Sequence record: PP261279.1
Strand: one strand, 5' to 3'
Length of the DNA stretch: 64,000 nt
Origin: Escherichia phage ECP2303
Each line of letters begins with the position of its first letter. Within the stretch, counting starts at the first letter, position 1. The notes under the pieces were generated by a model. That model saw only the letters and a program-made list of their open reading frames with translations, searched no databases and was not told the DNA's origin. Shown here piece by piece: positions 1,000-35,588 of the stretch. Position numbers and translations under genes: made by a program.

Positions 1000-1553
1000 A
1001 TGATCGGGCGGCTCGCCACCTGATCCACATATTTAAAAAATCTGTCGTTATCGTTTCTTGAGCTGTGGCTTTCCTCCGTGTACCGATAAGGAAAACCTCT
1101 TAACCAGCTGTTGAAGATGGAAGAGATGGATATGGACAAAGCACTATTCTCTCCTGTCTGGATAGCCATATCTGTTATAAGGCCGTCAAACAAGCCATTA
1201 GTTGTGACAGGCAGACCATTCTCCATAGCGGTAATGTACAACGTGGCACGACAACCAGAATACTCCGTCTTCAGCAGATCACCCACATACTTAGGATCAA
1301 ACCCGTTCAATGTTGCTACCACAGATCCGAAGTTGGTGGCATCTTTCTCAGACACAGCGGTCAATGTTGCTGATCCGCCTATCCCTATAAAATGTTGACC
1401 CTCAATTACTACAACACCAGTGCCTGAGCACACCCTGACAGTGCCTGTCGGTAGCTCCAGCTTTGCAGCAATTAAGATCTCAACACCATCAAGCTCTAGC
1501 TTTTCAAGAAATAAATTATCTAATGGCGCTCTGATCATCTTAGAAATCCTCAA
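987..1553 (-). CDS. hypothetical tail/baseplate protein
   Basis: 188-aa ORF in the co-oriented tail gene string with overlapping start/stop. Confidence 0.35.
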   Translation of the reverse strand: MRISKMIRAPLDNLFLEKLELDGVEILIAAKLELPTGTVRVCSGTGVVVIEGQHFIGIGGSATLTAVSEKDATNFGSVVATLNGFDPKYVGDLLKTEYSGCRATLYITAMENGLPVTTNGLFDGLITDMAIQTGENSALSISISSIFNSWLRGFPYRYTEESHSSRNDNDRFFKYVDQVASRPIIWEV

Positions 1554-2130
1554 AGAAGTTGATAACTATATTATCACCTTTTTGCATAGCATCGACTTTT
1601 TGCTTAATTTTATAAATATCTCTGATATGGAACCTACCCTTCGGGGATTGAGTTATTATCTTCATAGTGTCCCCTGCGGCAATAGGTTTTCTAAGTCTTG
1701 GAGATATGCTTATAACAGCAGACCCAACACCATCACTACGCACTGGAGCTGTTACCACTTTCAATTCATCATTGACAGATATTTTATCCCCAGCTCTGGC
1801 TATGTCTCTGTTTGGCTCCCATCCGACCGTATTCAAAAAATCGTCGTTGCCAGTAGGCCCAAGGGCGATTGGCTCATTAGCTGTTACTGAGTGACCGTAA
1901 GTTTTAATGAGAAAGATGTTCCCATCTTTATACACCTGATCAACAAAGCTTTTAAGCTCTAGCAACTGTGACTCGCTGATATTGGAGACCGTCAAAGTGC
2001 CTTTCCAGTTAGGTGTGGCATAGGTTACTTTTTGCGTCTTACCTGTAAACGGACTTTTAAACGTAACAATATCTGCCAGCAGCTCCAATCTAATATCTGG
2101 AAGGTATCTAGGCCTTTCCCATAAAAACAT
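1540..2130 (-). CDS. hypothetical tail/baseplate protein
   Basis: 196-aa ORF directly downstream of the tail fiber gene terminator; no motif recognised. Confidence 0.35.
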   Translation of the reverse strand: MFLWERPRYLPDIRLELLADIVTFKSPFTGKTQKVTYATPNWKGTLTVSNISESQLLELKSFVDQVYKDGNIFLIKTYGHSVTANEPIALGPTGNDDFLNTVGWEPNRDIARAGDKISVNDELKVVTAPVRSDGVGSAVISISPRLRKPIAAGDTMKIITQSPKGRFHIRDIYKIKQKVDAMQKGDNIVINFFEDF

Positions 2131-2191
2131 TGTGCCTCCAGGTTAAACAATCATGATAGTTATTTTACCAGATTTTGAGTTAATACGCAAT

Positions 2192-2222
2192 ACAAACAAA
2201 AAGCCCCCGCCGAAGCGAGGGC
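2192..2222 (-). terminator. Rho-independent terminator after the tail fiber gene
   Basis: Minus-strand RNA GCCCTCGC-UUCG-GCGGGGGC hairpin followed by UUUUUGUUUGU, just 3' of the stop at 2230. Confidence 0.6.
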
Positions 2223-2229
2223 AAAACAG

Positions 2230-5200
2230 TTACTTCAATTTCTCTTGCAATCCAGTAACAACCTCTGTCAATTTTTTAACCTGCTCCTCAAGGGCGGTTA
2301 TTTTATCGTCCTGTTCCCTGCAAACCTGGACAAGCAAGCCTGTTACAGCTGCGTAGTCAACGTTATAGAACCTTTCCTCAGTCATTAAAGGAATGCCGTC
2401 TTGAGTAGGACCTTCTATTTCCTTCCTTTTCACGAAAGATCCTACTGCCTCTGGCAATGCTTCCATAACCTCTTGAGCAATCACGCCTGCATAAGGCATA
2501 CCATTCTCTTTCAAGGTGTAGGTATAGCCTTTCATCTTTCTAATTGCTTCCAGAGCGTTAGGTATGACCTCTATGTTATCCTTCAGGTCCCTATCGGAAC
2601 TTTGACTAACAGTAGTACATTCTACCGTGCCGTTGACAGCAAAATATCTTGATTTAGCCTCATCTGCCTTAGCACCACAGTGGAATACCCAGCTGGCGAC
2701 TGTTGAGTTATCACTTATCTGAAACTCCAGCACATTCTTCCTATCTGCGCCATTACCCCAATAGTACAACCTACCTGTATTAGAAGGCATGTTGGAAGTG
2801 TTGGTAACATCCGCACCACCACCTGTGTGTATTGTGAACTCCGGTTCAAGATTGGATCCTTGAGTTTTTAAAGTGATACCTTTACCACCAAGCTGCTGCC
2901 AATGGCCCCATGTGAAAACACCACCTATCGTTGTTCCATAACGCAGGAATTTTTCTCCAAGATATGTCGTATATTCCTGTACGCAACTCTCTGGAACGTT
3001 GGCATAGTTTCTGTAGACAACGAGAGTACCTGCCTGGGAGCATGGGTAGTTTTTATCAAGTGCGGCCTGAGCATTAGCCTCCTGATGATAAAAACCCTCT
3101 CTATCCCCTTTGTAGTCGTTAAGGTCATTAGTCCCCAGCCCTTGACCACGGTGCTGAATAACTTTGTTCCATGCCCTATGGTTACCACCCTCGATAGATC
3201 TGGTGTATAGCTGATCAAGGCGACCAGCCATTTGGAAGGCATAGTTTCCAGAAAACGCCACAGACAGCCCACCAACAACCATCGAACCTTCAGGTCCGTT
3301 GACATTGCCTGCCATTATTTTAGAAGGGTTGTTAGGACCAAACTGGTTGTTCCAGTCTGCACCAGTATGGCATACAAAACCACCTGGAGCTGAGAAAGTA
3401 CCATCCTTGTTGAAGTTGTAGAATCTATGAGCTGTGCCTACAACATCGCGAACAATAACTTGACCAGCTTCCGGAGTAGATCTGAACTCTGCCTGGCCTT
3501 TGAGACCAGCACCATTACCGCATTTAGAGGTAAACGTACCGTTAGTCAGATCCTCTGTCCCATCAGATGCACACTGGAATCCTGCATTAGAGAATAACGC
3601 CTTTCTAGGACTGCCGTAGCACAAATAGTCAAGACCGTCTGCCCATAGCTCGACTTTTGGCATATTCATTTTGCTCATCACAGCATAGCGTTCAGCAGTG
3701 CCTATATAGTGCCACTGTGTGCCGCCGCCAGTGTAGAACCCTGAAGTACCTTTAAAATCAACAATAGGTCTGGTATTGGTGTTGTTATCTCCAAGAATGG
3801 CAAGATTCAAATCTGCTGACTGAAGAGGTGCAACGAACTTAACCCCATCCTGATTGTCTGTTACAGAGCCAACCTGGTAATCTTGCTCTCTGGTAAACAC
3901 TTCGACAACATTTCTACTTGCGTATATGCTGACAGGGAAAGCACGAGCCTCTACATAGAAAGCAACATACTCTTGTTTACCCCTTGTTGGAGCAACCATC
4001 CCAAGAAGTGCTTTTTCATTCTGGTAGAAATTTACTACCCCGTAGAAAGCGTCCCCTCTGTCTGTCCAACCACCAGTTCTATAGTGACACTGTAAGGTAG
4101 CACAGTTCATAGGGTCACCGCCGGATGACGATCTGGTAACTATGGTAATATCAGTGCCAGTTGCTGGAGCATAGTACGGATCTGTTCTAACGATAATTGG
4201 GTAGTATTTCCCATCTTCCATCCCTGCGGTTCTTGGCAGTGTTAAGAAGTCTTTTACACCTGCTGCTATAGGAACTTTGAACAGATTCTGAGCATCTGCT
4301 AAAGTTGTGGCTCCAGTACCACCTGCGGCGTGAGGTAAAGGTTCCCACTTGGCCTTCCGGTTGTTATAAACACCCCATTCCAAACTGCCGTTACCGGATT
4401 CGTCCATCCCGCCATCCCAGATAACCATCTTGGCGGCTTTCTTGGACCCCCAAAAGCCTCTTTCTGCTCCTGAACTACGGATCCACTCCCCAAGTCCCCA
4501 GTTTGTCAGCTGACCAGTAAGATCCCCAACCTGCATATATTTAGGACAGTCTAATACACCGTCCTCGCGGAAACCTAAATATCTATGAGTTTCAGATCCT
4601 TTTGCACCTTTGTGGAGGTGGATTGTCAACCAAGCCTTATTGTCGTTTCTTACCTCAGAATAGATCCTATAACCATGCTCAAGAATACCATCAGTATTAT
4701 ATTTATCTCCATGGAGAATACCTGAGGCCGATTTAACATCTCCAGAGTATTGAGCTAAGTAAAGGTGCCCGAAGGCTGGCGAGTTGTTTTTACCAAGGCC
4801 GATATGAGATCTGAAAGTATCATCGTTACGAGGTCTGACCATCGGCTGCCATGCAGTCCACTGGTTTGTGTTGGCCTGATAGGTTCTCAAATACCAAACA
4901 TCTACGTTAGAAAATGGATAGTATTCCTGACGACAACCTGTACCGCCGTTAGCATTGTTCTGCCAAACAATCAAGTGACCAGCACCAGAACCTGCAGGGT
5001 AACCATTTGCCTCAGTTGCATAAGCAGTCATCGGCTGGTAGTATACGCCATCCTGATTACCAGTCAAGTTATTGATATTGAAATTTGGCTCAAGGGCTGC
5101 ACGTTGCTTATAGAAAGCACCGATATTGATACGGACTCCAGCGGCATCTCTAGCCCCTGTGCCGCCTTGCTCTATAGCAAGAGGTTGCCACGAAGCTGTT

Positions 5201-6030
5201 TGTTGGTTCCACATACCCCAACGGCCTGTTGCATCAAGCTGCAAGTACCCTGCCGTATTTAAATCATCTCCAGCACGGATAACTGTTCTTGTTGGGTTGT
5301 TTGCCTCTAGGCGTTTAAATTCATCACGAAGTGCTATTCTTTTCGTTGTTGCTACACCGTTGGTTACTGCAATGGTGTACATGGCTCCGGTGGTAGCGCC
5401 ACGGAAAATACCATCAACAGTTGTAGTATCACGACGAGATACCACACCGTTCAGAAATTTTTCACCAGCTGCTACAGAAGGGTAGTTGGTAGTTCTTCCC
5501 TCTTCAATAACTGCAGGGCCAACAAAGTTATCGAGGTGAATAACATCGCCTACAGTGTGCACTGTACCAAAATCTACACGCTGTGCAAGTGCTTTGGCAT
5601 CGTTAGCTGTCTGAACAGTAACATCCATTACATCCTGGACAGACTGCCCTTCGGCTGTCATGATCATAGATGCGCCAATGGTAGATTCCAGCTCCTCCCT
5701 TAATGACGGATCTGTATATACCATCCATGCAGCGTCAGTAATCCCACCATCGGAGTACGGTGAAGACAGTGCAGGAACAGTGTGTGGAAATTCGCCTTTC
5801 CAACGTAGGTAGAGGTCTTCCTCTTCGAAGTAGGCAAAATCCATTGGGCCGTTTAACTTACCACCTTCCTTAAAGGAGATTACATGAGAAACAGTCCCAT
5901 CAACATGGACAACATCGCCAATTTTTACACGACGGGTCAGGTCTGGTTGTTGAACAACCAGGTAATCATCCTCTGTCACTGCGGTAGTGGCAGGAAGAGA
6001 TTCAATTCTGACAACTTTAATATCAGCCAT
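2230..6030 (-). CDS. long tail fiber / tailspike with C-terminal intramolecular chaperone (peptidase S74-type) domain
   Basis: 1266 aa; C-terminus SDRDLKDNIEVI...GYTYT...coiled coil matches the autoproteolytic chaperone domain of endosialidase/L-shaped fibers; N-terminal ~110 aa homologous to the N-terminus of the 222-aa protein at 8665-9333. Confidence 0.8.
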   Translation of the reverse strand: MADIKVVRIESLPATTAVTEDDYLVVQQPDLTRRVKIGDVVHVDGTVSHVISFKEGGKLNGPMDFAYFEEEDLYLRWKGEFPHTVPALSSPYSDGGITDAAWMVYTDPSLREELESTIGASMIMTAEGQSVQDVMDVTVQTANDAKALAQRVDFGTVHTVGDVIHLDNFVGPAVIEEGRTTNYPSVAAGEKFLNGVVSRRDTTTVDGIFRGATTGAMYTIAVTNGVATTKRIALRDEFKRLEANNPTRTVIRAGDDLNTAGYLQLDATGRWGMWNQQTASWQPLAIEQGGTGARDAAGVRINIGAFYKQRAALEPNFNINNLTGNQDGVYYQPMTAYATEANGYPAGSGAGHLIVWQNNANGGTGCRQEYYPFSNVDVWYLRTYQANTNQWTAWQPMVRPRNDDTFRSHIGLGKNNSPAFGHLYLAQYSGDVKSASGILHGDKYNTDGILEHGYRIYSEVRNDNKAWLTIHLHKGAKGSETHRYLGFREDGVLDCPKYMQVGDLTGQLTNWGLGEWIRSSGAERGFWGSKKAAKMVIWDGGMDESGNGSLEWGVYNNRKAKWEPLPHAAGGTGATTLADAQNLFKVPIAAGVKDFLTLPRTAGMEDGKYYPIIVRTDPYYAPATGTDITIVTRSSSGGDPMNCATLQCHYRTGGWTDRGDAFYGVVNFYQNEKALLGMVAPTRGKQEYVAFYVEARAFPVSIYASRNVVEVFTREQDYQVGSVTDNQDGVKFVAPLQSADLNLAILGDNNTNTRPIVDFKGTSGFYTGGGTQWHYIGTAERYAVMSKMNMPKVELWADGLDYLCYGSPRKALFSNAGFQCASDGTEDLTNGTFTSKCGNGAGLKGQAEFRSTPEAGQVIVRDVVGTAHRFYNFNKDGTFSAPGGFVCHTGADWNNQFGPNNPSKIMAGNVNGPEGSMVVGGLSVAFSGNYAFQMAGRLDQLYTRSIEGGNHRAWNKVIQHRGQGLGTNDLNDYKGDREGFYHQEANAQAALDKNYPCSQAGTLVVYRNYANVPESCVQEYTTYLGEKFLRYGTTIGGVFTWGHWQQLGGKGITLKTQGSNLEPEFTIHTGGGADVTNTSNMPSNTGRLYYWGNGADRKNVLEFQISDNSTVASWVFHCGAKADEAKSRYFAVNGTVECTTVSQSSDRDLKDNIEVIPNALEAIRKMKGYTYTLKENGMPYAGVIAQEVMEALPEAVGSFVKRKEIEGPTQDGIPLMTEERFYNVDYAAVTGLLVQVCREQDDKITALEEQVKKLTEVVTGLQEKLK

Positions 6031-6065
6031 TCTTTCTCCTGAAAGGGGGCAAACAGCCCCCTATG

Positions 6066-8663
6066 TTAAAGGTACAATCCACGGTATTGAGCATAGAGGC
6101 CCAGACCGCGAAGGATTTCGCCAGAGTGATAGCCTACCGGATCAGAAACTGCCCAGCAGCCGTTTAAAACATTATCCCCATTAATGAAGTGGTGCTTTTG
6201 CAGTAGCTTCACACAGGCTTCTACAACAATGTCTATTTGAGGTATTGTCTCTGAATACCCACACAGACCTAGCCAGCAGCAACCTGCAAGCCATTCACCT
6301 ACCACCCACATCCTGTCTCCTCTGTCTTGATAAGAATATCCCCCAGAGGTGTTAAAGTCTGTAGGCAGATTTCCTGAATGAGATGACTGGAATCTGTTGA
6401 GGAACCATGCCCATTTCTGGCAGAACAGGAATAGTCTTTCATCAACAGGTTCTTTATGTTTCTTGAGCTCATATATTGTGCGGCACGCAGCAACAAAAGA
6501 TCTTGACTGGAGCTTAGAGTTATCTACCATCTCCCACCAACCAGTCAACCCTTCATTACCTCTTTGCCATACATAACGTGAGGCAACTGGACCCTCTGTC
6601 TTAAATGTATTATTATACCAGACTTGAGCGTCATACAGAAAGCCTATTGTATTTGACAATCTATGGCGATCTATGTTTTCTGCACCCATACAGTAGACTG
6701 CTGGGTATTGCATGCCAGGGTAGGGCCAATTTGGCCTTTCCTCTAAGAGATAGTTTTCCTTATCTATCACCTTTCCGGCAGGGAACACCCCTGGCGTGTG
6801 CCTGTATGCACCTTGCTTGTAGTTTCTGACATAGCAATCGCCAACCTTAGCGGTTGATTCTGTCTTGCTTGCCATCCATACGCTAAACCAGATTAGATAA
6901 GCATCCCTGTCTGCAATATAGAATTGCGGCAGCGTGTTGACGCAGTACAGATCAAACAAGCCATTACCTATCTGCCTGTCGCTTAGGCTGAAATCTACAG
7001 AGGTGAGCCCCTTAGGATTAGCAAAGAAAGGTTTAATCTCTTCTTCGGTGTGATGAGGTTGTGTCGGATCTAGTTTGAAATCTCCTAGAGTAAGAGTTTC
7101 TGTTATCCATTGTCCATTAGTGGCATATAGATCAGCATACCATAACCACCTGTCTTTGTCAAGAAATTTGACCCTTACCATCTCATCATCTGATCGATAA
7201 GTTACTGAGTTTAAAGAAATCTCTCTTCCAAAATTGAAAGTTACTTTACCTCTTGCTATATTACAACGGGTGAAGTTGTCAGAGTGGTTGTAAATGTCGG
7301 TATCATACTGCATACCAACACCAGCACCACCGCTTACGGCAATGTTTTCCTCTTTAGGTAAGAGATACGGATTACCGTCTTTACCAACCACCTCTACGAA
7401 ATCAGTAACCTTGGCAACTATTTCTGTTACCTCTGCACCTCCAAAAGGGACACCTATCCTGTACTGTTTTTTGTTATTGTTACCATCATTAAGGATGAAA
7501 TGCGGCTGGAACAGAACACCTTCTCCTCCGAAATTCATAACAATTTCAGCATCTCTACCTATTTTGTATGTAGTCCCTTTTTGAATTATTTCGCAAGGCT
7601 GGCGTGCGTTCATTCTAAAATTGATATACCCGTCACTGTCCCTGCTCATGACAGGAACTGTTCCTGCAACAAGACAAGCACCATCTGTGAACGGTGCCTT
7701 AATCAACGTGGTCTTTCTAAACAGCTTGTCGTAGGCGTTTATATCACTGAAATTAAGCAACTTGTTGTAAGACTGTTTAAACGCGGTGTAATACTTTTCC
7801 TCACCTGTCAAGGTGTAGAGTTGATAACAAGCGTCACACCACATTTCTTCCCCGTCCAACTCCGGGGCCTGATTATCTGCAACCACGTTTATAGGATTTA
7901 CAATTACAGGGGATCCTGCAGGTATCACCGATCCACCCTGCTCTTGAGGTAATCTTACACAATAGGTCACCTTGTGGCTGCCTGTAACACCCTTATCTTG
8001 TAATTGGATTGTGCCGAACTCTACAGATGTATGACCACTGTCGGCTATGCTACCGTTAGCCCAATAGCGGTTACCATCCCATGCTATATACCACTCAACC
8101 CACCAACTTAATCCGGATGTTGTCCAATCCGGGTTAGCATCTGTGCCGCCGTAAACATCAGAGTCTACAGTGTTTCTTCCTAACACACCGTTATACGCTT
8201 GGAATGCCTTGTCCAGGTATTCCCCCCATGTCGGAGATCCAGCTGGGATTTTTCCTCTACCATTGGTAAAAGACACCACCACATCTTTAAACCCACCATG
8301 TGATGGAACCCCGTCTGTGGATAGAGGGTAGTGGGACAATCTTTGCATTTTACTTTCTACAGCATATGCACCCAGAAGATGACTATTGTAAGCTTCCCAA
8401 GCATCTTTTGCCCTATCCAGATAGAAATCGCTTTTCGATGCCCTATATGCTTCAATGTATCCCAGAATCAACACAGCTTGGGACTCATGCATTGCCCAAT
8501 CATTATTTATCTTATTACCTGCCCACCCTGCAGCTATAAGACCATCAGGGTTTACTAGCTTATTTTGTGTAGGGGTGTTGGTAATACCTGTGTTGTTATC
8601 GAGGCACTTCCTGTGCCCCTCAATCATCTGAAATACGTTATCAATGTTGTGTTGAATACGCAT
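6066..8663 (-). CDS. putative tailspike enzymatic subunit (polysaccharide depolymerase/glycosidase-like)
   Basis: 865 aa; translationally coupled to the upstream 222-aa anchor-domain protein (GGAG then ATG 1 nt after its stop); Trp/Tyr/Gly-rich composition typical of carbohydrate-active beta-helix or alpha-toroid proteins; no motif confirmed. Confidence 0.45.
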   Translation of the reverse strand: MRIQHNIDNVFQMIEGHRKCLDNNTGITNTPTQNKLVNPDGLIAAGWAGNKINNDWAMHESQAVLILGYIEAYRASKSDFYLDRAKDAWEAYNSHLLGAYAVESKMQRLSHYPLSTDGVPSHGGFKDVVVSFTNGRGKIPAGSPTWGEYLDKAFQAYNGVLGRNTVDSDVYGGTDANPDWTTSGLSWWVEWYIAWDGNRYWANGSIADSGHTSVEFGTIQLQDKGVTGSHKVTYCVRLPQEQGGSVIPAGSPVIVNPINVVADNQAPELDGEEMWCDACYQLYTLTGEEKYYTAFKQSYNKLLNFSDINAYDKLFRKTTLIKAPFTDGACLVAGTVPVMSRDSDGYINFRMNARQPCEIIQKGTTYKIGRDAEIVMNFGGEGVLFQPHFILNDGNNNKKQYRIGVPFGGAEVTEIVAKVTDFVEVVGKDGNPYLLPKEENIAVSGGAGVGMQYDTDIYNHSDNFTRCNIARGKVTFNFGREISLNSVTYRSDDEMVRVKFLDKDRWLWYADLYATNGQWITETLTLGDFKLDPTQPHHTEEEIKPFFANPKGLTSVDFSLSDRQIGNGLFDLYCVNTLPQFYIADRDAYLIWFSVWMASKTESTAKVGDCYVRNYKQGAYRHTPGVFPAGKVIDKENYLLEERPNWPYPGMQYPAVYCMGAENIDRHRLSNTIGFLYDAQVWYNNTFKTEGPVASRYVWQRGNEGLTGWWEMVDNSKLQSRSFVAACRTIYELKKHKEPVDERLFLFCQKWAWFLNRFQSSHSGNLPTDFNTSGGYSYQDRGDRMWVVGEWLAGCCWLGLCGYSETIPQIDIVVEACVKLLQKHHFINGDNVLNGCWAVSDPVGYHSGEILRGLGLYAQYRGLYL

Positions 8664-8664
8664 C

Positions 8665-9333
8665 TTAGATAGCTCCTGCGATAATCAGTGCCCCGTACCA
8701 AGTTAACCCGTTGTCGTAGGTTTCCAACTTGAAAATATCTGTTGCACCAGCTGTAAATGTTAGGATAGGATCTCTTCCGTAGGACCATTTAACATTGTCA
8801 GGCCAATAGACTTTGTTGCCGCCAGAGGTCTGAGTAATGCATACGGTTATAGTTCTCGCCACCCCTTCAAGACCTTCTGTTTGATTTTCAAAAGAGATTG
8901 TGGTATTTGAAGTTAGTCGAACTTTAAAGGTATCCGCAACTTCAAGATCCATATCAAGCTGACCACCGATAGATCCGTAATCAACTATTCTGCCATAAGA
9001 AGTTGCAGCAAGCTCACCAAAAACAGACCATGCATTTGCAGACACACCCCCAGCACCCTCTACAGTGGAGTCTGGGAGGATTATTTTAGGATAATCCCCG
9101 TTCCACGTGTAGTAGCGCTTAGTCTCTGGGTCATAAGCAAAGTCCTTCTTGCTCTTAAGATAGCCACCCTCTGTGAAATAGACTATCTTAGTAATGCTAA
9201 GATCGTTGACAACATCGTCAATCTTAGCCTTTCTTGTCCCATCAGTCTGGTTGACAACCAAGAAGTCATCACTCAGGACTGTTTCTGCATCTTCAAGATC
9301 TGGAATTGGTATTGTAGGATAAGCTACAGCCAT
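8665..9333 (-). CDS. tail fiber/spike adaptor with conserved N-terminal particle-anchor domain
   Basis: 222 aa; N-terminus (DDFLVV..TDGTRKAKIDDVV...EGGYL...DFAY) aligns with the N-terminus of the 1266-aa fiber (DDYLVV..DLTRRVKIGDVV...EGGKL...DFAY). Confidence 0.5.
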   Translation of the reverse strand: MAVAYPTIPIPDLEDAETVLSDDFLVVNQTDGTRKAKIDDVVNDLSITKIVYFTEGGYLKSKKDFAYDPETKRYYTWNGDYPKIILPDSTVEGAGGVSANAWSVFGELAATSYGRIVDYGSIGGQLDMDLEVADTFKVRLTSNTTISFENQTEGLEGVARTITVCITQTSGGNKVYWPDNVKWSYGRDPILTFTAGATDIFKLETYDNGLTWYGALIIAGAI

Positions 9334-9342
9334 GATTTCTCC

Positions 9343-10059
9343 TTAGTTAACATCAATAGCACGACCAGACTGGTTGGCAATGGCCTCATCATTGGAGGTA
9401 GCAATAACACCAGAGTATTCGCGCTCATCTGGAGCAAGCGTCCAGGTATTGCGGTTAATGGTTTGTTCTGCCTCAGTCATCAGCAGATCTTTATCCTGAG
9501 TCAACAGAGAGCCTACAGGGATCGGGTTTTCCATCTCAGGACCAGCATACTGGTTCCACCATGTGGCATCTCCGGTTCTAGGCAATCTGAAGTTGATCAG
9601 ATAGTACAGTTTATTAGCCCACTTAATCCAACCCTCATCATCACAGAGAGAGGTTGTCCCAGAATCAGGCTGTGGGTAGGTGAACTGATCAAGACCTACG
9701 AAAGCCAGCCTTACAATCTCGTTCTCTTTGGTAACAACCTCAAAGAACGCTTGGTATGTTCTCGATCTTCGATCCATGGTAGACTGGAAGTTTATGATGT
9801 TTAGCACATCCGGCTCTTGTCTTGCCACTTCCATAATCTTGTTATCAAGAACAGTCTTCATGACCTTCTTACTGAGAAAGTCCATATAAGGGAAGCCAAA
9901 CAACTCGTCAAAGTACCAGCTCCCCTTCCACGTATTAAACCTCATCCACAAGCGCTGGCGCAGACTTACTTGGTTTGAATCTATCAACTCAAGACCTTTG
10001 TCTATCGCCAAATCGCCTGTCTGTGGGTCCATCAATATATCACTATAAAGCGTAGCCAT
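9343..10059 (-). CDS. baseplate wedge protein (putative)
   Basis: 238 aa between the spike and the fiber genes; N-terminal D..GDLAIDKG...W..F...W pattern reminiscent of small baseplate wedge proteins. Confidence 0.4.
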   Translation of the reverse strand: MATLYSDILMDPQTGDLAIDKGLELIDSNQVSLRQRLWMRFNTWKGSWYFDELFGFPYMDFLSKKVMKTVLDNKIMEVARQEPDVLNIINFQSTMDRRSRTYQAFFEVVTKENEIVRLAFVGLDQFTYPQPDSGTTSLCDDEGWIKWANKLYYLINFRLPRTGDATWWNQYAGPEMENPIPVGSLLTQDKDLLMTEAEQTINRNTWTLAPDEREYSGVIATSNDEAIANQSGRAIDVN

Positions 10060-10071
10060 GAAAGCCCTCTA

Positions 10072-10749
10072 TTAGTGCGGTCCACTTGTCTCGCCATCAG
10101 GGCAAGAGTGGGTATGACCTTTATATTCTGCATAGAATGAATCCAAATCCACACCAGCAGCAGTTATAATTCTACCAGATGGGTCTATTGTGGCACCATT
10201 CATTCTGATATTTCCATCCACAGCAGCTCGCAAATTGGCAGCCCCGTTAGTGAAAGAAAACTCCCCGCTACTGTCGCACCGTAATGTCCCACCAGGTGTT
10301 TGAAGCTCAAAATCGCCAGAAGGTGTCAGTTTAAAATAAACCATATCATTCCATAACTCTACGTTATCAGGATCGATCTGTAAAGCGTTTGAGTCTGAAT
10401 GAACAGAGGTGATTGCCCACCCTGGAAACAGGCCGTGAGTTTGTTGATCGTCGTTATTGTTTTCATTTCTCTCTGAAAACTGCAATCCTACAACATCCCC
10501 AGCCTTAATAGGAAGTGTTAACCTTGCCTTTCCGCTGTTTGCAGACATCACCTGAATTGGAACGTCATAGATAAGAGGGTATCTCTCCACATCCCCGTCA
10601 TCAAACGTGGTTTCAGCTATTGGCTGCACGGCTGCAGAAGGTATACTGTAGTCAACACTGACAACTCTGGCCCTGATACTGGTGTGATAGTCCCTCATTA
10701 TTTTTTCTATAAAGGATCTTACAGCAGCATCTTTCCTATTTATTGCCAT
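10072..10749 (-). CDS. baseplate central spike protein (gpV/gp45-like)
   Basis: 225 aa; C-terminal GHTHSCPDGETSGPH contains the HxH motif characteristic of metal-binding spike apex domains; sits between hub-like and wedge-like genes. Confidence 0.55.
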   Translation of the reverse strand: MAINRKDAAVRSFIEKIMRDYHTSIRARVVSVDYSIPSAAVQPIAETTFDDGDVERYPLIYDVPIQVMSANSGKARLTLPIKAGDVVGLQFSERNENNNDDQQTHGLFPGWAITSVHSDSNALQIDPDNVELWNDMVYFKLTPSGDFELQTPGGTLRCDSSGEFSFTNGAANLRAAVDGNIRMNGATIDPSGRIITAAGVDLDSFYAEYKGHTHSCPDGETSGPH

Positions 10750-11747
10750 TATACCTCCTCAGTTTTGTCAACAACTCCACCCACTGTTTCCCCAAGGCCA
10801 AGCTCTGTAGTGTAATCACCGCCTTCTATGGTGCCCTTATGATGCACCGTGATCACCTTATAGAAGCCTGTATATTGCCTGCTTTTAAGATAAATAGTGG
10901 ACTCTGGGAGGATAGCTCCGTTAAGGCATGTGGTTACAGTAAGGCCAACATCCTCTCTCGGGTTTTTCTTTTTCTTACGTGTGCCACCTTTCGCAGCAGC
11001 TTTAGCTTTTCGCTTTTTAGCAGGTTCTGGGTTTTTAGGGGTAGGTGATCCGTGCATCCCAGACTCTGCACTTATTTCAAACACAGAGTCTTTAAACCTT
11101 TTTCCAACCTTAGTCCAATACAAAGCCCCATCCTGAACGCTAAATGTGGAGTTGGTCAGCCTTGCAAACCTGCGGAGGTTCTCTGCAGTGTTTCCAGAGA
11201 AAGCCATAGAGTATTGCAAAGTCTGGTTTCCAAAACCAACAACCCTACCTTTTGGCAAGTTCATATCCTTCAGCAGGTCATTAAGCACAGAGTTCAGAGG
11301 TGTACCTTTCTGATAAGATCTTGTGCTTTGGCACTTAATGATGTTCTCAGTGCCATCCCCAAAGATGAACTTAGTTTTTCTGGTCGGGCCTTCCCATCTG
11401 TCCTCAACAAACTCTACAGTTCCAGAGAATATCAACTGGTTCTCATTGTCATAGCCAGCCTCAAACATAACTGCAAGAGCATCAGCTTGATGCATATCCA
11501 GATAGTTAACTGTATCGTCAGACAGGTTGTAAACTGTCACATAGCCTTTGTTTGGCTCTTTGGTATTGTCCTTTTGTATGTCAAACTCTATATTGGCAGC
11601 ACCAGTGTCCGAGCTAATCTCATAAACTCCGGAATCACTCTCTCCTTTCTTTTCAACAGATTTTGGGATATTGGTTTTTGATTTACCGCCATGCTCTACA
11701 GGACGACCAAATAATAATCGCCATGTTCTACGTCTGTACTCTGCCAT
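10749..11747 (-). CDS. baseplate hub-like protein (putative)
   Basis: 332 aa immediately upstream of the spike gene with ATG/stop overlap; the call is positional. Confidence 0.4.
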   Translation of the reverse strand: MAEYRRRTWRLLFGRPVEHGGKSKTNIPKSVEKKGESDSGVYEISSDTGAANIEFDIQKDNTKEPNKGYVTVYNLSDDTVNYLDMHQADALAVMFEAGYDNENQLIFSGTVEFVEDRWEGPTRKTKFIFGDGTENIIKCQSTRSYQKGTPLNSVLNDLLKDMNLPKGRVVGFGNQTLQYSMAFSGNTAENLRRFARLTNSTFSVQDGALYWTKVGKRFKDSVFEISAESGMHGSPTPKNPEPAKKRKAKAAAKGGTRKKKKNPREDVGLTVTTCLNGAILPESTIYLKSRQYTGFYKVITVHHKGTIEGGDYTTELGLGETVGGVVDKTEEV

Positions 11748-12127
11748 TATTCTAACCCTTGCTGTTCCTTGTAAAGATCAACTGGGGTGCCGTATACAAG
11801 CTGTAGCTCGGATCTTGCTCCAAGGTTGTATCTTCCAACCCTGCCCCAATATTGATCATCTTTAAACGACAGCGCCATCAATCTACCTTTCGGTAAATCG
11901 TCTCTGTAATGCAGTCCGTCTAAGATATCTTGACAAGCTGTTACTTTTCTGGTTACTAAAGGGCTGTCACCTACCGGACCAAGGGATAACCACCAAGACT
12001 CATCCCTCTCATTCCATTGCATACGCATTTCATATGTTTCATTGTCTAAAACAACACGCATGGTTTGATCAGGAAAGCCGTCAATGTCCCACACAAAGGT
12101 GATTATGCACCAATCTTTAAGCTCCAT
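11747..12127 (-). CDS. hypothetical tail/baseplate protein
   Basis: 126-aa ORF coupled between the 303-aa and 332-aa genes. Confidence 0.3.
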   Translation of the reverse strand: MELKDWCIITFVWDIDGFPDQTMRVVLDNETYEMRMQWNERDESWWLSLGPVGDSPLVTRKVTACQDILDGLHYRDDLPKGRLMALSFKDDQYWGRVGRYNLGARSELQLVYGTPVDLYKEQQGLE

Positions 12128-32462: not shown

Positions 32463-33017
32463 TTACTCCCCGCTGTCAATAGCAAGACTCATTGCAATAC
32501 GGTATGCCTCTTCTAATGGTAAGAGTCTCCCCCACACATCCCAACCGACATCAAACTGCCTGCCAAACAACTGCTGTGTGGTTCCGTGAGCATGACCGAA
32601 CAGTTGGACTGATCCGTGAGGCTTTCTGTTCCACTTTGCAAACTGGTAATGGCTCATACAGATCAAATTCTTGTTGTGGCGAAGCTCGTAATAATCTACA
32701 ACCTCATGACCGAACTCTTTCATAATTCTGACAGTCGTTCTTGTGTCATGGTTACCACGAACAAGAATAATATGTCCGTTCAACATATTTAGAACATCTG
32801 GAAGCAGTTTGTTGATATTCTTATCATTAGTGCACGCAATATCCCCCAAGTGAAACACAGTGTCTGCAGGTGACACAACAGAGTTCCACTTGGTGATGAT
32901 TCCCGCATTCATACTGTCAAGATTGTGATCATACTGAGATCTGTGTTTTTGACATGAGTCGAACTCCATTACCCGCTGGTGGAGAAAGTGTGTGTCGCTT
33001 GTTACAAAGTATTTCAT
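32463..33017 (-). CDS. calcineurin-like metallophosphoesterase (putative RNA/DNA 3'-phosphatase)
   Basis: Start at ATG 33017 (GAGGAA RBS); motifs SDTHF, GDIACT, GNHD, GHAHG correspond to metallophosphatase motifs; coupled to the kinase gene. Confidence 0.65.
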   Translation of the reverse strand: MKYFVTSDTHFLHQRVMEFDSCQKHRSQYDHNLDSMNAGIITKWNSVVSPADTVFHLGDIACTNDKNINKLLPDVLNMLNGHIILVRGNHDTRTTVRIMKEFGHEVVDYYELRHNKNLICMSHYQFAKWNRKPHGSVQLFGHAHGTTQQLFGRQFDVGWDVWGRLLPLEEAYRIAMSLAIDSGE

Positions 33018-33024
33018 ACATTCC

Positions 33025-33435
33025 TCATTTAAGTTTAATGCAGTTTTTAAGCTGGCGTTCCATACGATCCACAACCCTGTCTGGAACATCATGAATGCTT
33101 TTATTACCATGGCGGTTTTCAACCACGATCACGGTATAACTATATCCATGACTGATCGCCATGTCAATATATTCTTGCACATATTTTTCTTTTGTAAACG
33201 TATTACTTACCACGATACGGTCGTAGCCCATACGCATCATATCTTCTACGTTATCTTTGCACCATTTTGCTGCAAGTGTTACTTTACTTGCATCCCAATT
33301 GTAATTGCCGTCATCGTCGTACCAGAACATATCGTTCTCAAAATGTGGATACAGACCTTCTAAAGATAGCGCATTTGCCAGTGTTGATTTGCCAGACCCT
33401 GGTAGACCACGCACGATATATAGCATTTTAGACAT
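33025..33435 (-). CDS. P-loop polynucleotide kinase-like protein
   Basis: Start at ATG 33435 (GGAGAG RBS); Walker A GLPGSGKST near N-terminus as in T4 Pnk kinase domain; 136 aa. Confidence 0.6.
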   Translation of the reverse strand: MSKMLYIVRGLPGSGKSTLANALSLEGLYPHFENDMFWYDDDGNYNWDASKVTLAAKWCKDNVEDMMRMGYDRIVVSNTFTKEKYVQEYIDMAISHGYSYTVIVVENRHGNKSIHDVPDRVVDRMERQLKNCIKLK

Positions 33436-33463
33436 AGTAACTCTCCGTTTTAATTTTAATGAT

Positions 33464-33492
33464 AGTATACCTAACTGTTTTGTTAATTTCAA
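33464..33492 (-). promoter_or_regulatory. sigma70-type promoter for the kinase/phosphatase operon
   Basis: Minus-strand TTGAAA, 17-nt spacer, TATACT; about 30 nt upstream of the kinase start. Confidence 0.4.
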
Positions 33493-33495
33493 GTG

Positions 33496-33524
33496 TTGAC
33501 ACCAGGTTATTTGTGTGGCAGAAT
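33496..33524 (+). promoter_or_regulatory. sigma70-type promoter opening the plus-strand block
   Basis: TTGACA, 17-nt spacer ending TGTGG, then CAGAAT; divergent from the minus-strand promoter. Confidence 0.4.
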
Positions 33525-33556
33525 AAAGGGACAAAATGACAAATGAGGAATGTATG

Positions 33557-34471
33557 ATGAAGTATTTTAATGCAGACGACCTGGTTGACAAAGGTCTTGT
33601 AACCAGCAGATATTACCCAGATCTTGGATTAAAGATCTACAAATATGCCAGAAAAGTATTCTACAACAATTTATGGCATTTGTCTCCGCGTTTACTAGAG
33701 TGCCGAGGCATTGTTGTCGGTAATGAAGGAAATGTTGTGGCATGGCCCTTCACAAAAGTGTTTAATTTGGGAGAAAACTCCACCAACCTGCCTGACAATA
33801 AACTTGTGACGGCGGTAGAGAAAAAGAACGGATTCCTTGGTGTGGTATCATCTCATAAAGGTGAACTATTGTTTTCAACAACCGGGTCTCTTGATTCTCC
33901 ATATTGTAACCTTGCAAAGGAAACCATCCAGGAGCAATGTGGTAATTTAGATCTCATCAAAAAGGTTATGGGCCATGAAAACATGACATTCATGTTTGAA
34001 ATTTGTCACCCTTCAGATCCGCATATTGTTCAGGAAGACCATGGCGCATATTTGATAGGTTGCAGATATAACGATTCTGGAATAATGCTACCAGAAGCAG
34101 CTTTAGATGGGATTGCCAAATACCTTGGTGCAAAACGTCCTCACACTGTGCGTGAAATTCCGTTCAGCTATGCAAAAGAATTAGCTGCAGAAACAAGAGG
34201 TGAAGGGTATATGATTCGTAAGCCTTACTACCCTTATGATCTGCAGCTGAAGATCAAGTCTCCATACTATTTGGCACGGAAGGCCGTAATGAGGGGTAAA
34301 GCTTGGAAGATTTGGGATGATGATATCTTTAAACGTATTGACGAAGAGTTTTACGGCATGGTAAACTTCATTCGTAACAATTACACAGAAGATGTGTGGA
34401 ACTGCCTCCTAGAGCAGGAACGCCGTGAGATACTTGACTGCTATTTCCACAACGAGGACTATATGCAATGA
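33557..34471 (+). CDS. RNA ligase 1 (T4 RnlA-like)
   Basis: LECRGIVVGNEG and FNLGEN match T4 Rnl1 (LECRGIMFEMDG, FNLNEN); nucleotidyltransferase motif I KKNGFL matches KEDGSL; start assigned to ATG with GAGGAA RBS (track start 33536). Confidence 0.75.
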   Translation: MKYFNADDLVDKGLVTSRYYPDLGLKIYKYARKVFYNNLWHLSPRLLECRGIVVGNEGNVVAWPFTKVFNLGENSTNLPDNKLVTAVEKKNGFLGVVSSHKGELLFSTTGSLDSPYCNLAKETIQEQCGNLDLIKKVMGHENMTFMFEICHPSDPHIVQEDHGAYLIGCRYNDSGIMLPEAALDGIAKYLGAKRPHTVREIPFSYAKELAAETRGEGYMIRKPYYPYDLQLKIKSPYYLARKAVMRGKAWKIWDDDIFKRIDEEFYGMVNFIRNNYTEDVWNCLLEQERREILDCYFHNEDYMQ

Positions 34472-34818
34472 AGAAGTTGATTGTGTGGCTGGATGACTTG
34501 AGAGATCCGTCAAATTATGGGCTCCCAGATGCTCTTTGGCTAAAGAATTCCTCTGAGTTTATGGATTTTATTAACGATAAGGGAAAGCTCTACAGGCGCG
34601 TTTCTGAGTGGCACATGGACAACGACCTTGGAGAGGTATTTGAAGGGTACGATTGCCTATCTATGCTGGAGGAAAAATTTGTATTTGGTAAGCCTCCTGT
34701 AGTTGACAACGTGAAGATTTTCGTGCATACTTCTAACCCATCAGCTGCTCGTAAATTCATGCTTGCTGCTGACTCGTTTAAAAAGTTTGGAATAGAGATT
34801 AAACAAAACATCTACTGA
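34468..34818 (+). CDS. hypothetical protein
   Basis: 116-aa ORF coupled between RNA ligase and Sir2-like genes; no motif recognised. Confidence 0.4.
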   Translation: MKKLIVWLDDLRDPSNYGLPDALWLKNSSEFMDFINDKGKLYRRVSEWHMDNDLGEVFEGYDCLSMLEEKFVFGKPPVVDNVKIFVHTSNPSAARKFMLAADSFKKFGIEIKQNIY

Positions 34819-34826
34819 GGACACTT

Positions 34827-35588
34827 ATGCGACGACTGATCATTATCTCCGGTGCTGGTTTGAGCGCTGAATCTGGTATCCCAACTTTCCGATCTGGTGG
34901 CACTGCAATGTGGGAGAATTTCAGCATCGATGAGGTGTGTAACATCCACACCTTTGCCAAGAACTACTATAAGGTTCATGACTTTTACAATGCACGGCGT
35001 GTAGCTCTTGGCAGTGTTGATCCTAACCTTGCACATCTCCGGATCGCTGAGTGGTATTCCCGCTGGTCTGGTCGTGTGATCAACCTGACCACCAATGTAG
35101 ATGATTTGCTGGAGCGTGCTGGTGTAAAACATGAAGATATTTTACATGTCCACGGATATTTGCCAGAAATAGTCTACAAGGATGATGAAGGGAGTAACGT
35201 CATTAAAGACATTGGATACTCTGAGGTAGATGCAAGCAAGTATACTTGGGTTAAGCCTAATGTAGTGTTCTTCGGAGAAGTAGCTCCAAAGTATACAGAC
35301 ATGTATGACCTGTTGACTTCTCTGACGAGCAATGATATGGTTATCCTTGTAGGGTGCTCCAACACAGTTATCAATTTTAACTGGGAGCTATTCCCTGCCT
35401 GTAATAAGGGGACCAAACTGCTGATCGTTAACAAATACGACTCACAGCATTTAGGGGAGAATGGCATTTCACGTAGTGACATTTACCAGTATGAGGATCG
35501 CGGCATCCCAGTTTGGTTTAACGGGGCTGTTGACGCTTTCTCTGATAAAACATTCATTGACATCGTAGAAAACTTTATGGAACTGTAA
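34827..35588 (+). CDS. Sir2-family (sirtuin-like) NAD-dependent protein, lacking the zinc ribbon
   Basis: GAGLSAESGIPTFR, TTNVDDLLERAG, catalytic-type HG (LHVHGYL), VVFFGE, LVGCS; no CxxC...CxxC zinc motif. Confidence 0.8.
   Translation: MRRLIIISGAGLSAESGIPTFRSGGTAMWENFSIDEVCNIHTFAKNYYKVHDFYNARRVALGSVDPNLAHLRIAEWYSRWSGRVINLTTNVDDLLERAGVKHEDILHVHGYLPEIVYKDDEGSNVIKDIGYSEVDASKYTWVKPNVVFFGEVAPKYTDMYDLLTSLTSNDMVILVGCSNTVINFNWELFPACNKGTKLLIVNKYDSQHLGENGISRSDIYQYEDRGIPVWFNGAVDAFSDKTFIDIVENFMEL

Follow-up and report, generated by a model that had tools for sequence, protein, structure and literature searches.

A lateral tail fibre gene of Escherichia phage ECP2303 with an S74-type C-terminal chaperone domain and a predicted self-cleavage site

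The window, which is the whole 64,000-nucleotide stretch of Escherichia phage ECP2303 (PP261279.1) analysed here, carries a complete ATG-to-stop reading frame for a tail fibre on its minus strand, an orientation left unstated in the first-pass annotation (Table 1). The earlier reading of a 1266-aa tail fiber at 2230-6030 agrees with the ORF list, the translation, and an identical deposited protein, WXX18343.1 (PP464953.1; 100% identity), which was named "lateral tail fiber protein". The window itself matched Escherichia phage ECP2309 (Vequintavirus, rV5-like) at 100% identity, and the protein matched phrog_6578, tail fiber (E=0). On sequence grounds, the gene product is the precursor of one lateral (side) tail fibre of a Vequintavirus and the orthologue of rV5 gp41. 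The gene is flanked by two hairpins, one of which begins just past its stop codon. The other, 5' of the gene, was not among the output of the terminator scan, and its role as a terminator is therefore putative. The genes immediately downstream are tail gene homologues, one for a distal tail protein and the other for a tail protein (phrog_1302 and phrog_2048).

Table 1. Positions of the fibre gene, its flanking signals, the domains of its product, and peptides diagnostic of cleavage (positions are those of the window)
Feature	Position	Strand	Remarks
Hairpin GGGGGC-TGTTT-GCCCCC, then TTT	6045..6061	-	separates the gp42 homologue upstream from the fibre gene
Ribosome-binding site AGGAGA	6035..6040	-	4 nt 5' of the ATG, read in the 40 nt upstream
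Lateral tail fibre CDS, complete	2230..6030	-	1266 aa, precursor 138.7 kDa; rV5 gp41 orthologue
N-terminal anchor domain Tail_spike_N (CBA120 TSP1 / G7C gp66 type), aa 46-103	5722..5895	-	Pfam PF18668, E=2.3e-10
Pyocin-knob-like domain 1, aa 317-397	4840..5082	-	internal paralogy with aa 968-1047
Pyocin-knob-like domain 2, aa 968-1047	2890..3129	-	start of the allele-variable tip
Distal tip, aa 1048-1144	2599..2889	-	end of the mature fibre, presumed to bind the receptor
Intramolecular chaperone / Peptidase_S74, aa 1145-1266	2233..2598	-	122 residues, 13.7 kDa; predicted release after trimer folding
Ser1145 codon, predicted nucleophile	2596..2598	-	predicted scissile bond Ser1144|Ser1145
Lys1150 codon, predicted general base of the Ser-Lys dyad	2581..2583	-	
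Long C-terminal chaperone helix, aa 1226-1265	2236..2355	-	model residues 92-131, pLDDT 90-96; predicted trimeric coiled coil
Terminator-like hairpin, 8 pairs (7 G-C), then TTTTTGTTTG	2203..2222	-	begins 8 nt past the stop codon
Predicted C-terminal peptide of the mature fibre, aa 1129-1144 (semi-tryptic)			YFAVNGTVECTTVSQS
C-terminal peptide corresponding to a cut after Ser1145			YFAVNGTVECTTVSQSS
Tryptic peptide spanning the predicted cleavage site			YFAVNGTVECTTVSQSSDR
Chaperone tryptic peptides, examples			DNIEVIPNALEAIR, FYNVDYAAVTGLLVQVCR

From the N terminus, the protein begins with a Tail_spike_N anchor, for which phmmer matched the N-terminal parts of the solved tail fibre or tailspike chains 9occ, 9lna, 9d84, 4qnl, 5w6h, and 4oj5, and which probably serves to anchor the protein in the fibre network of the baseplate. 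The two pyocin-knob-like domains proved to be internal paralogues, with a Smith-Waterman score of 102 against 29+/-5.7 for shuffles (z=12.7); the label 'pyocin knob' was taken from the names of NCBI homologues and from domain D7 in PMC12143355. The last tip domain (WGN..DR..V.E....VNG.V.CT) is related to a domain that recurs in T4 gp34. Its profile matched the T4 gp34 structures 5nxf, 5nxh, and 4uxe with E about 1e-8, the matches stopping one residue before the SDR motif, and Foldseek paired the tip with the R1 pyocin fibre 6cl5. After the anchor, the mature fibre would be laid out as a long shaft, conserved across the genus and bearing one pyocin-knob-like domain, and distal to it the second knob together with the variable tip that would bind the receptor (about aa 950-1144).

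The extreme C terminus, comprising the last 122 of the 1266 residues after the T4 gp34/pyocin-fibre-related knob, is a Peptidase_S74 domain. Pfam PF13884 matched aa 1145-1196 over profile positions 1-57 of 58 with E=7.1e-15 and 55.5 bits, above the curated cut-off of 22 and far beyond chance, bearing out the S74-type domain that had been proposed with a Pfam search as its check. The proposed C-terminal location also stands; the length given at first, "last ~125 residues", is corrected to 122, because the peptide SDRDLKDNIEVIPNALEAIRKMKGYTYTLKENG begins at residue 1145. An NCBIfam search gave no match, and a second fibre bearing an S74 chaperone was found neither in the 64-kb window nor in a 28-kb fibre locus. 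The AF2 model of 132 residues (pLDDT 80) presents the expected order of short helices, a hairpin, a long hairpin, and a long C-terminal helix, so that, as modelled, the domain has the fold of an intramolecular chaperone, in which a mixed alpha/beta body is joined by a long beta-hairpin, the 'tentacle', and by a C-terminal helix expected to assemble into a trimeric coiled coil. The coiled coil suggested for the C-terminal domain is consistent with this helix, whose region gave weak profile matches to trimeric coiled-coil peptides. The T5 chaperone has been described as a central trimeric coiled coil (PMC4690869).

A Ser-Lys dyad with the spacing S-x4-K sits at the N-terminal edge of the S74 domain. 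Ser1145, Asp1146, and Lys1150 (SDRDLK) are invariant in both alignments of diverse homologues (27 and 32 sequences), and S-D-x-x-L-K is kept in 119 of 120 homologues. BLASTP placed Ser1145 and Lys1150 opposite Ser1264 and Lys1269 of T5 pb1 in an alignment that is itself non-significant (E=0.21); these two pb1 residues are the experimentally defined catalytic dyad (PMC4690869). The cleavage-site Ser leaves together with the chaperone in T5 and K1F; the phi29 appendage was modelled with this Ser at the end of the mature chain (PMC4690869), and among family members the cut may fall on either side of the conserved Ser. For the present phage, both cleavage itself and the exact bond, Ser1144|Ser1145, are predictions from the T5 and K1F precedent. 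Since the conserved Ser departs with the chaperone in these two phages, the expected last residue of the mature fibre is 1144, which gives a mass of 125 kDa and the release of a 13.7 kDa fragment. The mature end had been put at the conserved Ser just before the domain; a cut next to the domain edge is indeed predicted, and the conserved Ser1145 is the first residue of the domain rather than one preceding it. Residue 1144 is also a Ser here but is variable among homologues.

The K1F endoNF C-terminal chaperone (PDB 3GW6), with which the Pfam family Peptidase_S74 was founded, was not found by single-sequence phmmer searches of the PDB with the whole protein and the last 218 aa, and neither was that of T5, while S16 gp37 and MyRF were recovered. 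A profile of 27 sequences likewise reached neither the K1F nor the T5 chaperone, and hhalign of the profile with the T5 pb1 C terminus returned a probability of 6.6%, although the expected residues were aligned. Because these sequence-only searches missed both chaperones, it is the Pfam model, the aligned motif, and the fold that connect the domain to K1F and T5. Among solved chains, S16 gp37 (PDB 6F45) comes closest in sequence at the cleavage site and in the chaperone, with '...C..L..SSDR.IK.DI...'; the MyRF ICA domain (PDB 7DC3) belongs to a eukaryotic membrane-bound transcription factor of unrelated context and substrate.

By analogy, the C terminus of the fibre is predicted to work like that of a T5-type fibre, whereas the remainder differs. 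T5 pb1 gave no significant BLASTP alignment, the best segment other than the cleavage motif having E=0.06, and no pb1 homology was found along the shaft and tip. The pb1 tip is a 'bullet' domain in contrast to the T4 gp34/pyocin-fibre-related knob, and the virion here is that of a myovirus with several fibre sets. Considering that pb1 had no significant match and that fibres of the large siphoviruses Salmonella phage Kenya-K33 and Escherichia phage HASG4 aligned over 72-76% of the length with 34-37% identity, the protein is related to some large-siphovirus fibres and is not a pb1 orthologue.

The likeness to K1F endoNF bears on another reading, in which the fibre would be an endosialidase tailspike; this reading follows the annotation of the phage PDX and V18 orthologues as 'endo-N-acetylneuraminidase'. 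The C terminus does resemble endoNF, but the likeness is restricted to the chaperone, with only 11-14% identity in structural alignments, and the sialidase catalytic domain of endoNF is absent here: no sialidase or beta-propeller domain was detected by Pfam at E<=1 across the fibre protein, and the endosialidase function was rejected on this basis. In the PDB, sequence matches of the protein were limited to anchor domains at the N terminus and the chaperone region of S16 gp37, and the PHROG matches (best 25 of 44) were, with two exceptions, annotated as tail fibre or other tail/baseplate proteins, which together make an endosialidase extremely improbable. Since only the chaperone resembles endoNF, the orthologues appear to be misnamed, and their label looks like a name transfer from the chaperone domain. 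The two exceptions among the same 25 PHROG matches were one family of unknown function and one named 'haemolysin-type calcium binding'.

By homology with K1F endoNF and T5 pb1, three chaperone domains would associate through the C-terminal coiled coil and beta-hairpin 'tentacles', and this association would nucleate and register the trimer folding of the adjoining tip. After correct folding, Ser1145 activated by Lys1150 would attack the Ser1144-Ser1145 peptide bond, and the departure of the chaperone would unmask the tip of the mature fibre. Taken as a whole, this explanation with an anchor, a shaft, a tip, and a self-cleaved chaperone is considered very likely.

Release from the virion is indirectly supported by a relative. 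In the 2025 cryo-EM study of MaxBurger, the S74 domain had no density on the virion fibre in a low-resolution map of 7-9 A (PMC12143355). The MaxBurger fibre at the same locus, where 'RBP_11' is presumably bas54_0027, is 85% identical overall with a nearly identical chaperone, and the map would by analogy speak for removal of the chaperone here. It is very unlikely that the S74-homologous domain is instead retained uncleaved, as a coiled-coil cap that permanently trimerises the virion fibre: the dyad and the surrounding motif are invariant, which is unexpected in a non-catalytic remnant, the domain is missing from the MaxBurger map, and the uncleaved chaperone of T5 masks the receptor-binding tip and abolishes adsorption competition (PMC4690869). 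Retention is compatible with the peptide data for rV5 gp41, which was identified as a virion protein by mass spectrometry in 2013 (PMC3606486). All eight of its virion peptides lie N-terminal of the chaperone, at a coverage of 8.1%, a distribution that is not significant. Only 6 of the 52 observable tryptic peptides fall in the chaperone, so the rV5 peptides are too sparse to show its absence; from these counts, we estimate that none among eight would be expected about 37% of the time.

A literature search for a Vequintavirus tail fiber with S74 found no paper. The S74-chaperone interpretation of this gene family is already known since 2013, when rV5 gp41 was annotated with PF13884 and similarity to 3GW6 (PMC3606486), and in 2019 the similarities of the 1266-aa orf40 of rV5-like JK phages to the T5 fibre, the K1F chaperone, and S16 were described (PMC6832132). 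The current view of S74 chaperones and of Vequintavirus host recognition is unchanged. For annotation, the predicted end of the mature fibre is to be recorded as residue 1144, and for expression or re-targeting the chaperone is predicted to be needed in the construct for folding and to be absent from the product.

The closest known relatives of the fibre are rV5 gp41 (YP_002003543.1, 1272 aa) and other Vequintavirus orthologues, such as MaxBurger bas54_0027 and the orf40 protein of the JK phages, which share the locus, the gene order, and the architecture; rV5 gp41 likewise carries an N-terminal Tail_spike_N and a C-terminal Peptidase_S74 domain. In blocks of 50 residues, identity to rV5 gp41 over aa 1-950 is 94-100% except for two dips of 82% and 84%, and the chaperone is 84-100% identical. 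Between them, identity falls to 42-60% in the tip (about aa 950-1144), which also differs in length by 6 residues; in the second knob region it is 56%. The present gene is thus another allele of the rV5 gene, distinct in its receptor-binding part.

This variation bears on which protein binds the receptor. The chaperone might be cleaved as proposed and the exposed tip dock a separate small adhesin, as gp38 does on S16 gp37, a possibility raised for MaxBurger by its authors (PMC12143355) and in line with S16 gp37 (6F45) being the best PDB sequence match of the chaperone region. Such an adhesin is quite unlikely. Unlike in S16, no gp38-like gene adjoins the fibre gene, its immediate downstream neighbours being the tail homologues named above, and the MaxBurger map contained no adhesin density (PMC12143355). 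Moreover, no other part of the protein varies as much as the tip, which is what a receptor-contacting surface would be expected to show, and E. coli prophage side fibres bear the tip-plus-chaperone module as a stand-alone gene.

The tip varies in a cassette-like manner. From about aa 1000-1050 onward, the nimi-type allele is wholly divergent, many genomes match the fibre gene over its last ~430 nt only, and some Vequintaviruses carry at the same locus a 1479-aa allele that lacks an S74 match and has a weak lectin-like match. The tip-plus-chaperone module is also shared, at 45-67% identity, with E. coli prophage side tail fibres (about 450-530 aa), which are much shorter and have another N-terminal attachment region. 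With moderate confidence, we suggest a tip-exchange cassette whose 3' homology arm would be the conserved chaperone with the terminator behind it and whose 5' arm would be the conserved shaft. By this route, a virulent Vequintavirus could exchange tips with E. coli prophage side fibres, or even have the whole tip-plus-chaperone unit replaced by a chaperone-less lectin-head allele. Tail-fibre mosaicism of this kind and lectin-head replacement have already been described (PMC8594841; PMC12143355). One prophage-type homologue is encoded in a prophage-like region, where the gene for a GpJ-like central fibre lies upstream of it, and the prophage side fibres go under the names 'tail fiber domain-containing protein' and 'pyocin knob domain-containing S74 family peptidase'.

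The C-terminus of the 1266-aa lateral tail fibre encoded by Escherichia phage ECP2303 carries an S74-type chaperone domain, as the first-pass annotation had claimed from the sequence. A Pfam Peptidase_S74 HMM search matched PF13884 ('chaperone of endosialidase') to aa 1145-1196 over model positions 1-57 of 58, with an E-value of 7.1e-15 and 55.5 bits (gathering score 22). The C-terminal location of the domain was right, whereas the proposed extent of about 125 residues is corrected to 122, since the peptide quoted for it starts at residue 1145. When the last 306 residues served as query, 119 of 120 database homologues kept S-D-x-x-L-K at the matching site, and Ser1145, Asp1146 and Lys1150 showed no substitution in two alignments of diverse homologues; the position ahead of the conserved Ser is variable and holds S, L, I, N, T, G, H, V or A. 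A BLASTP alignment with T5 pb1, weak overall, paired '...AVNGT...SDRDLKDN' with T5 '...AVNGTINTSDARLKND', placing Ser1145 on Ser1264 and Lys1150 on Lys1269, the scissile, catalytic Ser and the activating Lys of the T5 protein, in which replacement of the catalytic Ser by Ala blocked processing (PMC4690869). No second chaperone-bearing gene was found in the window or the 28-kb fibre locus; only the fibre gene carries one.

The mature C-terminus had been placed at a conserved Ser just before the domain. A conserved Ser does lie at the domain edge, but it is Ser1145, the first residue of the domain itself. Mature T5 protein, and reportedly that of K1F, lacks density for this Ser (PMC4690869), which is therefore taken to depart with the chaperone; the sole exception is the phi29 appendage, where the conserved Ser was modelled as the final mature residue (PMC4690869). 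The mature fibre is best predicted to span aa 1-1144 (125.0 kDa), with aa 1145-1266 (13.7 kDa) being released. Residue 1144 of this fibre is a Ser, at a position not conserved among homologues.

Virion data from relatives bear on the removal of the chaperone. The 2025 RBPseg study described a peptidase S74 domain at the end of the MaxBurger fibre RBP_11 and a lectin-like head on the EmilHeitz fibre RBP_10, and the S74 domain was absent from the virion map (PMC12143355). Based on the matching architecture and the S74-versus-lectin-head allele pair, we infer that RBP_11 is bas54_0027 (1272 aa), which is 85% identical to the ECP2303 fibre with an almost identical chaperone. In the rV5 virion proteome, gp41 was represented by 8 peptides, all within aa 434-1073; as only 6 of its 52 observable tryptic peptides fall in the chaperone, these data fit removal rather than provide evidence for it.

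Comparison with rV5 gp41 (1272 aa) showed 94-100% identity per 50-residue block to about aa 950, with two lower blocks at aa 801-850 (84%) and aa 901-950 (82%), then 42-60% over aa 951-1150 and 84-100% in the chaperone. In nucleotide comparisons, the match of many Vequintavirus genomes is confined to the final ~430 nt of the gene. A second allele type of 1479 aa occupies the same locus in phages nimi and rV5_ev146, being 94-95% identical over aligned aa 1-1046; by block, identity is mostly >94% to about aa 950, then drops to ~80% over aa 951-1000 and to ~40% over aa 1001-1050, after which the two proteins share no real similarity. This allele contains no S74 domain and shows a weak concanavalin/lectin-like match at its C terminus (Laminin_G_3/ConA-like, aa 1421-1472). 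E. coli proteins of ~450-530 aa share the tip-plus-chaperone module (45-67% identity); the gene for one of them lies downstream of a gene for a GpJ-like central fibre, in a region resembling a prophage. Judged from the low tip identity, the 1479-aa allele and the module in E. coli proteins, the receptor-binding end is an exchangeable cassette. At the nimi and rV5_ev146 loci (L003 and L004, allele at 1501-5940), a ~110-aa ORF from 5940 overlaps the end of the 1479-aa allele. It has no counterpart in ECP2309, rV5 or MaxBurger, where a 196-aa distal tail protein homologue comes next, and may provide this allele with a separate chaperone or adhesin.

These features have been described before. Kropinski et al. 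(2013) annotated rV5 gp41 with PF13884 and reported an HHpred match to 3GW6 and a coiled coil (PMC3606486). For a 1266-aa protein encoded by orf40 in rV5-like phages, Kaczorowska et al. (2019) described resemblance to the L-shaped fibre of T5, the chaperone of K1F and the receptor-binding protein of S16 (PMC6832132). Maffei et al. (2021) found this gene to vary strongly between alleles (PMC8594841), and the S74-versus-lectin-head replacement was treated in the RBPseg paper (PMC12143355). The first-pass reading is correct, and the feature is an ordinary one.

No sialidase domain was found in the fibre by Pfam, so 'endo-N-acetylneuraminidase', the name given to the orthologues in the PDX and V18 phage records, seems to have been carried over from the chaperone, and an endosialidase identity was rejected. 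In V18 (KY683736, locus L005, 1501-4432), the orthologue is split into three annotated CDSs, a 599-aa 'endo-N-acetylneuraminidase', its name probably transferred from the chaperone match, and two hypothetical proteins; frameshifts or sequencing errors could account for the split, or the fibre may truly be disrupted.

The ORF runs from ATG to stop over 1266 codons as annotated, on the minus strand, which had gone unmentioned. Megablast showed 100% identity of the window to PP464953.1 (Escherichia phage ECP2309; Vequintavirus, rV5-like), where the ORF is WXX18343.1, 'lateral tail fiber protein', within a long series of tail, baseplate and fibre genes on the minus strand. PHROGs assigned the protein to tail-fibre family phrog_6578 (E=0) and its neighbours to tail, baseplate and fibre families. 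Because G+C-rich hairpins flank the gene at both ends, it may form a unit with termination of its own, which would fit cassette-like exchange between genomes. GC skew, negative up to about 34 kb, becomes positive there, consistent with a minus- to plus-strand transcription switch from the structural module to the next.

Features of the fibre gene and its surroundings
Feature	Position	Strand	Basis
Fibre gene	2230-6030	minus	
Ribosome-binding site AGGAGA	ahead of fibre ATG	minus	read from sequence
Strong terminator-like hairpin, beginning 8 nt past fibre stop codon	2203-2222	minus	
Hairpin, other flank of fibre gene	6045-6061	minus	
Tail_spike_N anchor domain, N terminus	aa 46-103		Pfam
First ~140 fibre residues	5600-6030	minus	PHROGs
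Junction-like motif, copy 1	aa 289-293; 5152-5166	minus	
Junction-like motif, copy 2	aa 570-574; 4309-4323	minus	
222-aa protein, two genes upstream of fibre	8665-9333	minus	PHROGs
'Distal tail protein' phrog_1302 and 'tail protein' phrog_2048, directly 3' of fibre gene	987-2130	minus	PHROGs
GC-skew sign change	around 33000-35000		

Several tail fibres and tailspikes of solved structure have N-terminal parts that match the anchor domain. Within the fibre, residues 317-397 are paralogous to residues 968-1047 (z=12.7 versus shuffles), and both segments correspond to 'pyocin knob' domains as named by NCBI and the RBPseg study. The last pre-cleavage domain is related to a repeated domain of T4 gp34 (5NXF, 4UXE; E about 1e-8), with a weaker relationship to the R1 pyocin fibre. 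Two copies of W-(Q/E)-P-L-x4-GGTGA-x-(D/T)-x-A, each closing a block, resemble the conserved junction motif of many phage fibres and could delimit modules.

Both the 222-aa protein, which is homologous to rV5 gp43, and the N-terminal ~140 residues of the fibre matched phrog_7760 and had several tailspike N-terminal families in common, indicating paralogous N-terminal anchor modules that perhaps dock to the same baseplate partner. The rV5 counterparts of the phrog_1302 and phrog_2048 genes were noted to resemble Yersinia phage PY54 proteins, and the 1279-aa protein beyond them was assigned to COG4733 (phage-related tail component) in the rV5 paper (PMC3606486); this region extends before the window start (6494-11901 of locus L001), and the three look like tail-tip genes, placed here within the fibre locus of a phage with a contractile tail. 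Between 11 and 25 unannotated 'Campylobacter phage' records of 135-143 kb (host Campylobacter jejuni; e.g. MG065646, MG065658) matched the fibre gene with identities of about 82-93%; the stated host seems doubtful, and contaminating coliphages may be the source.
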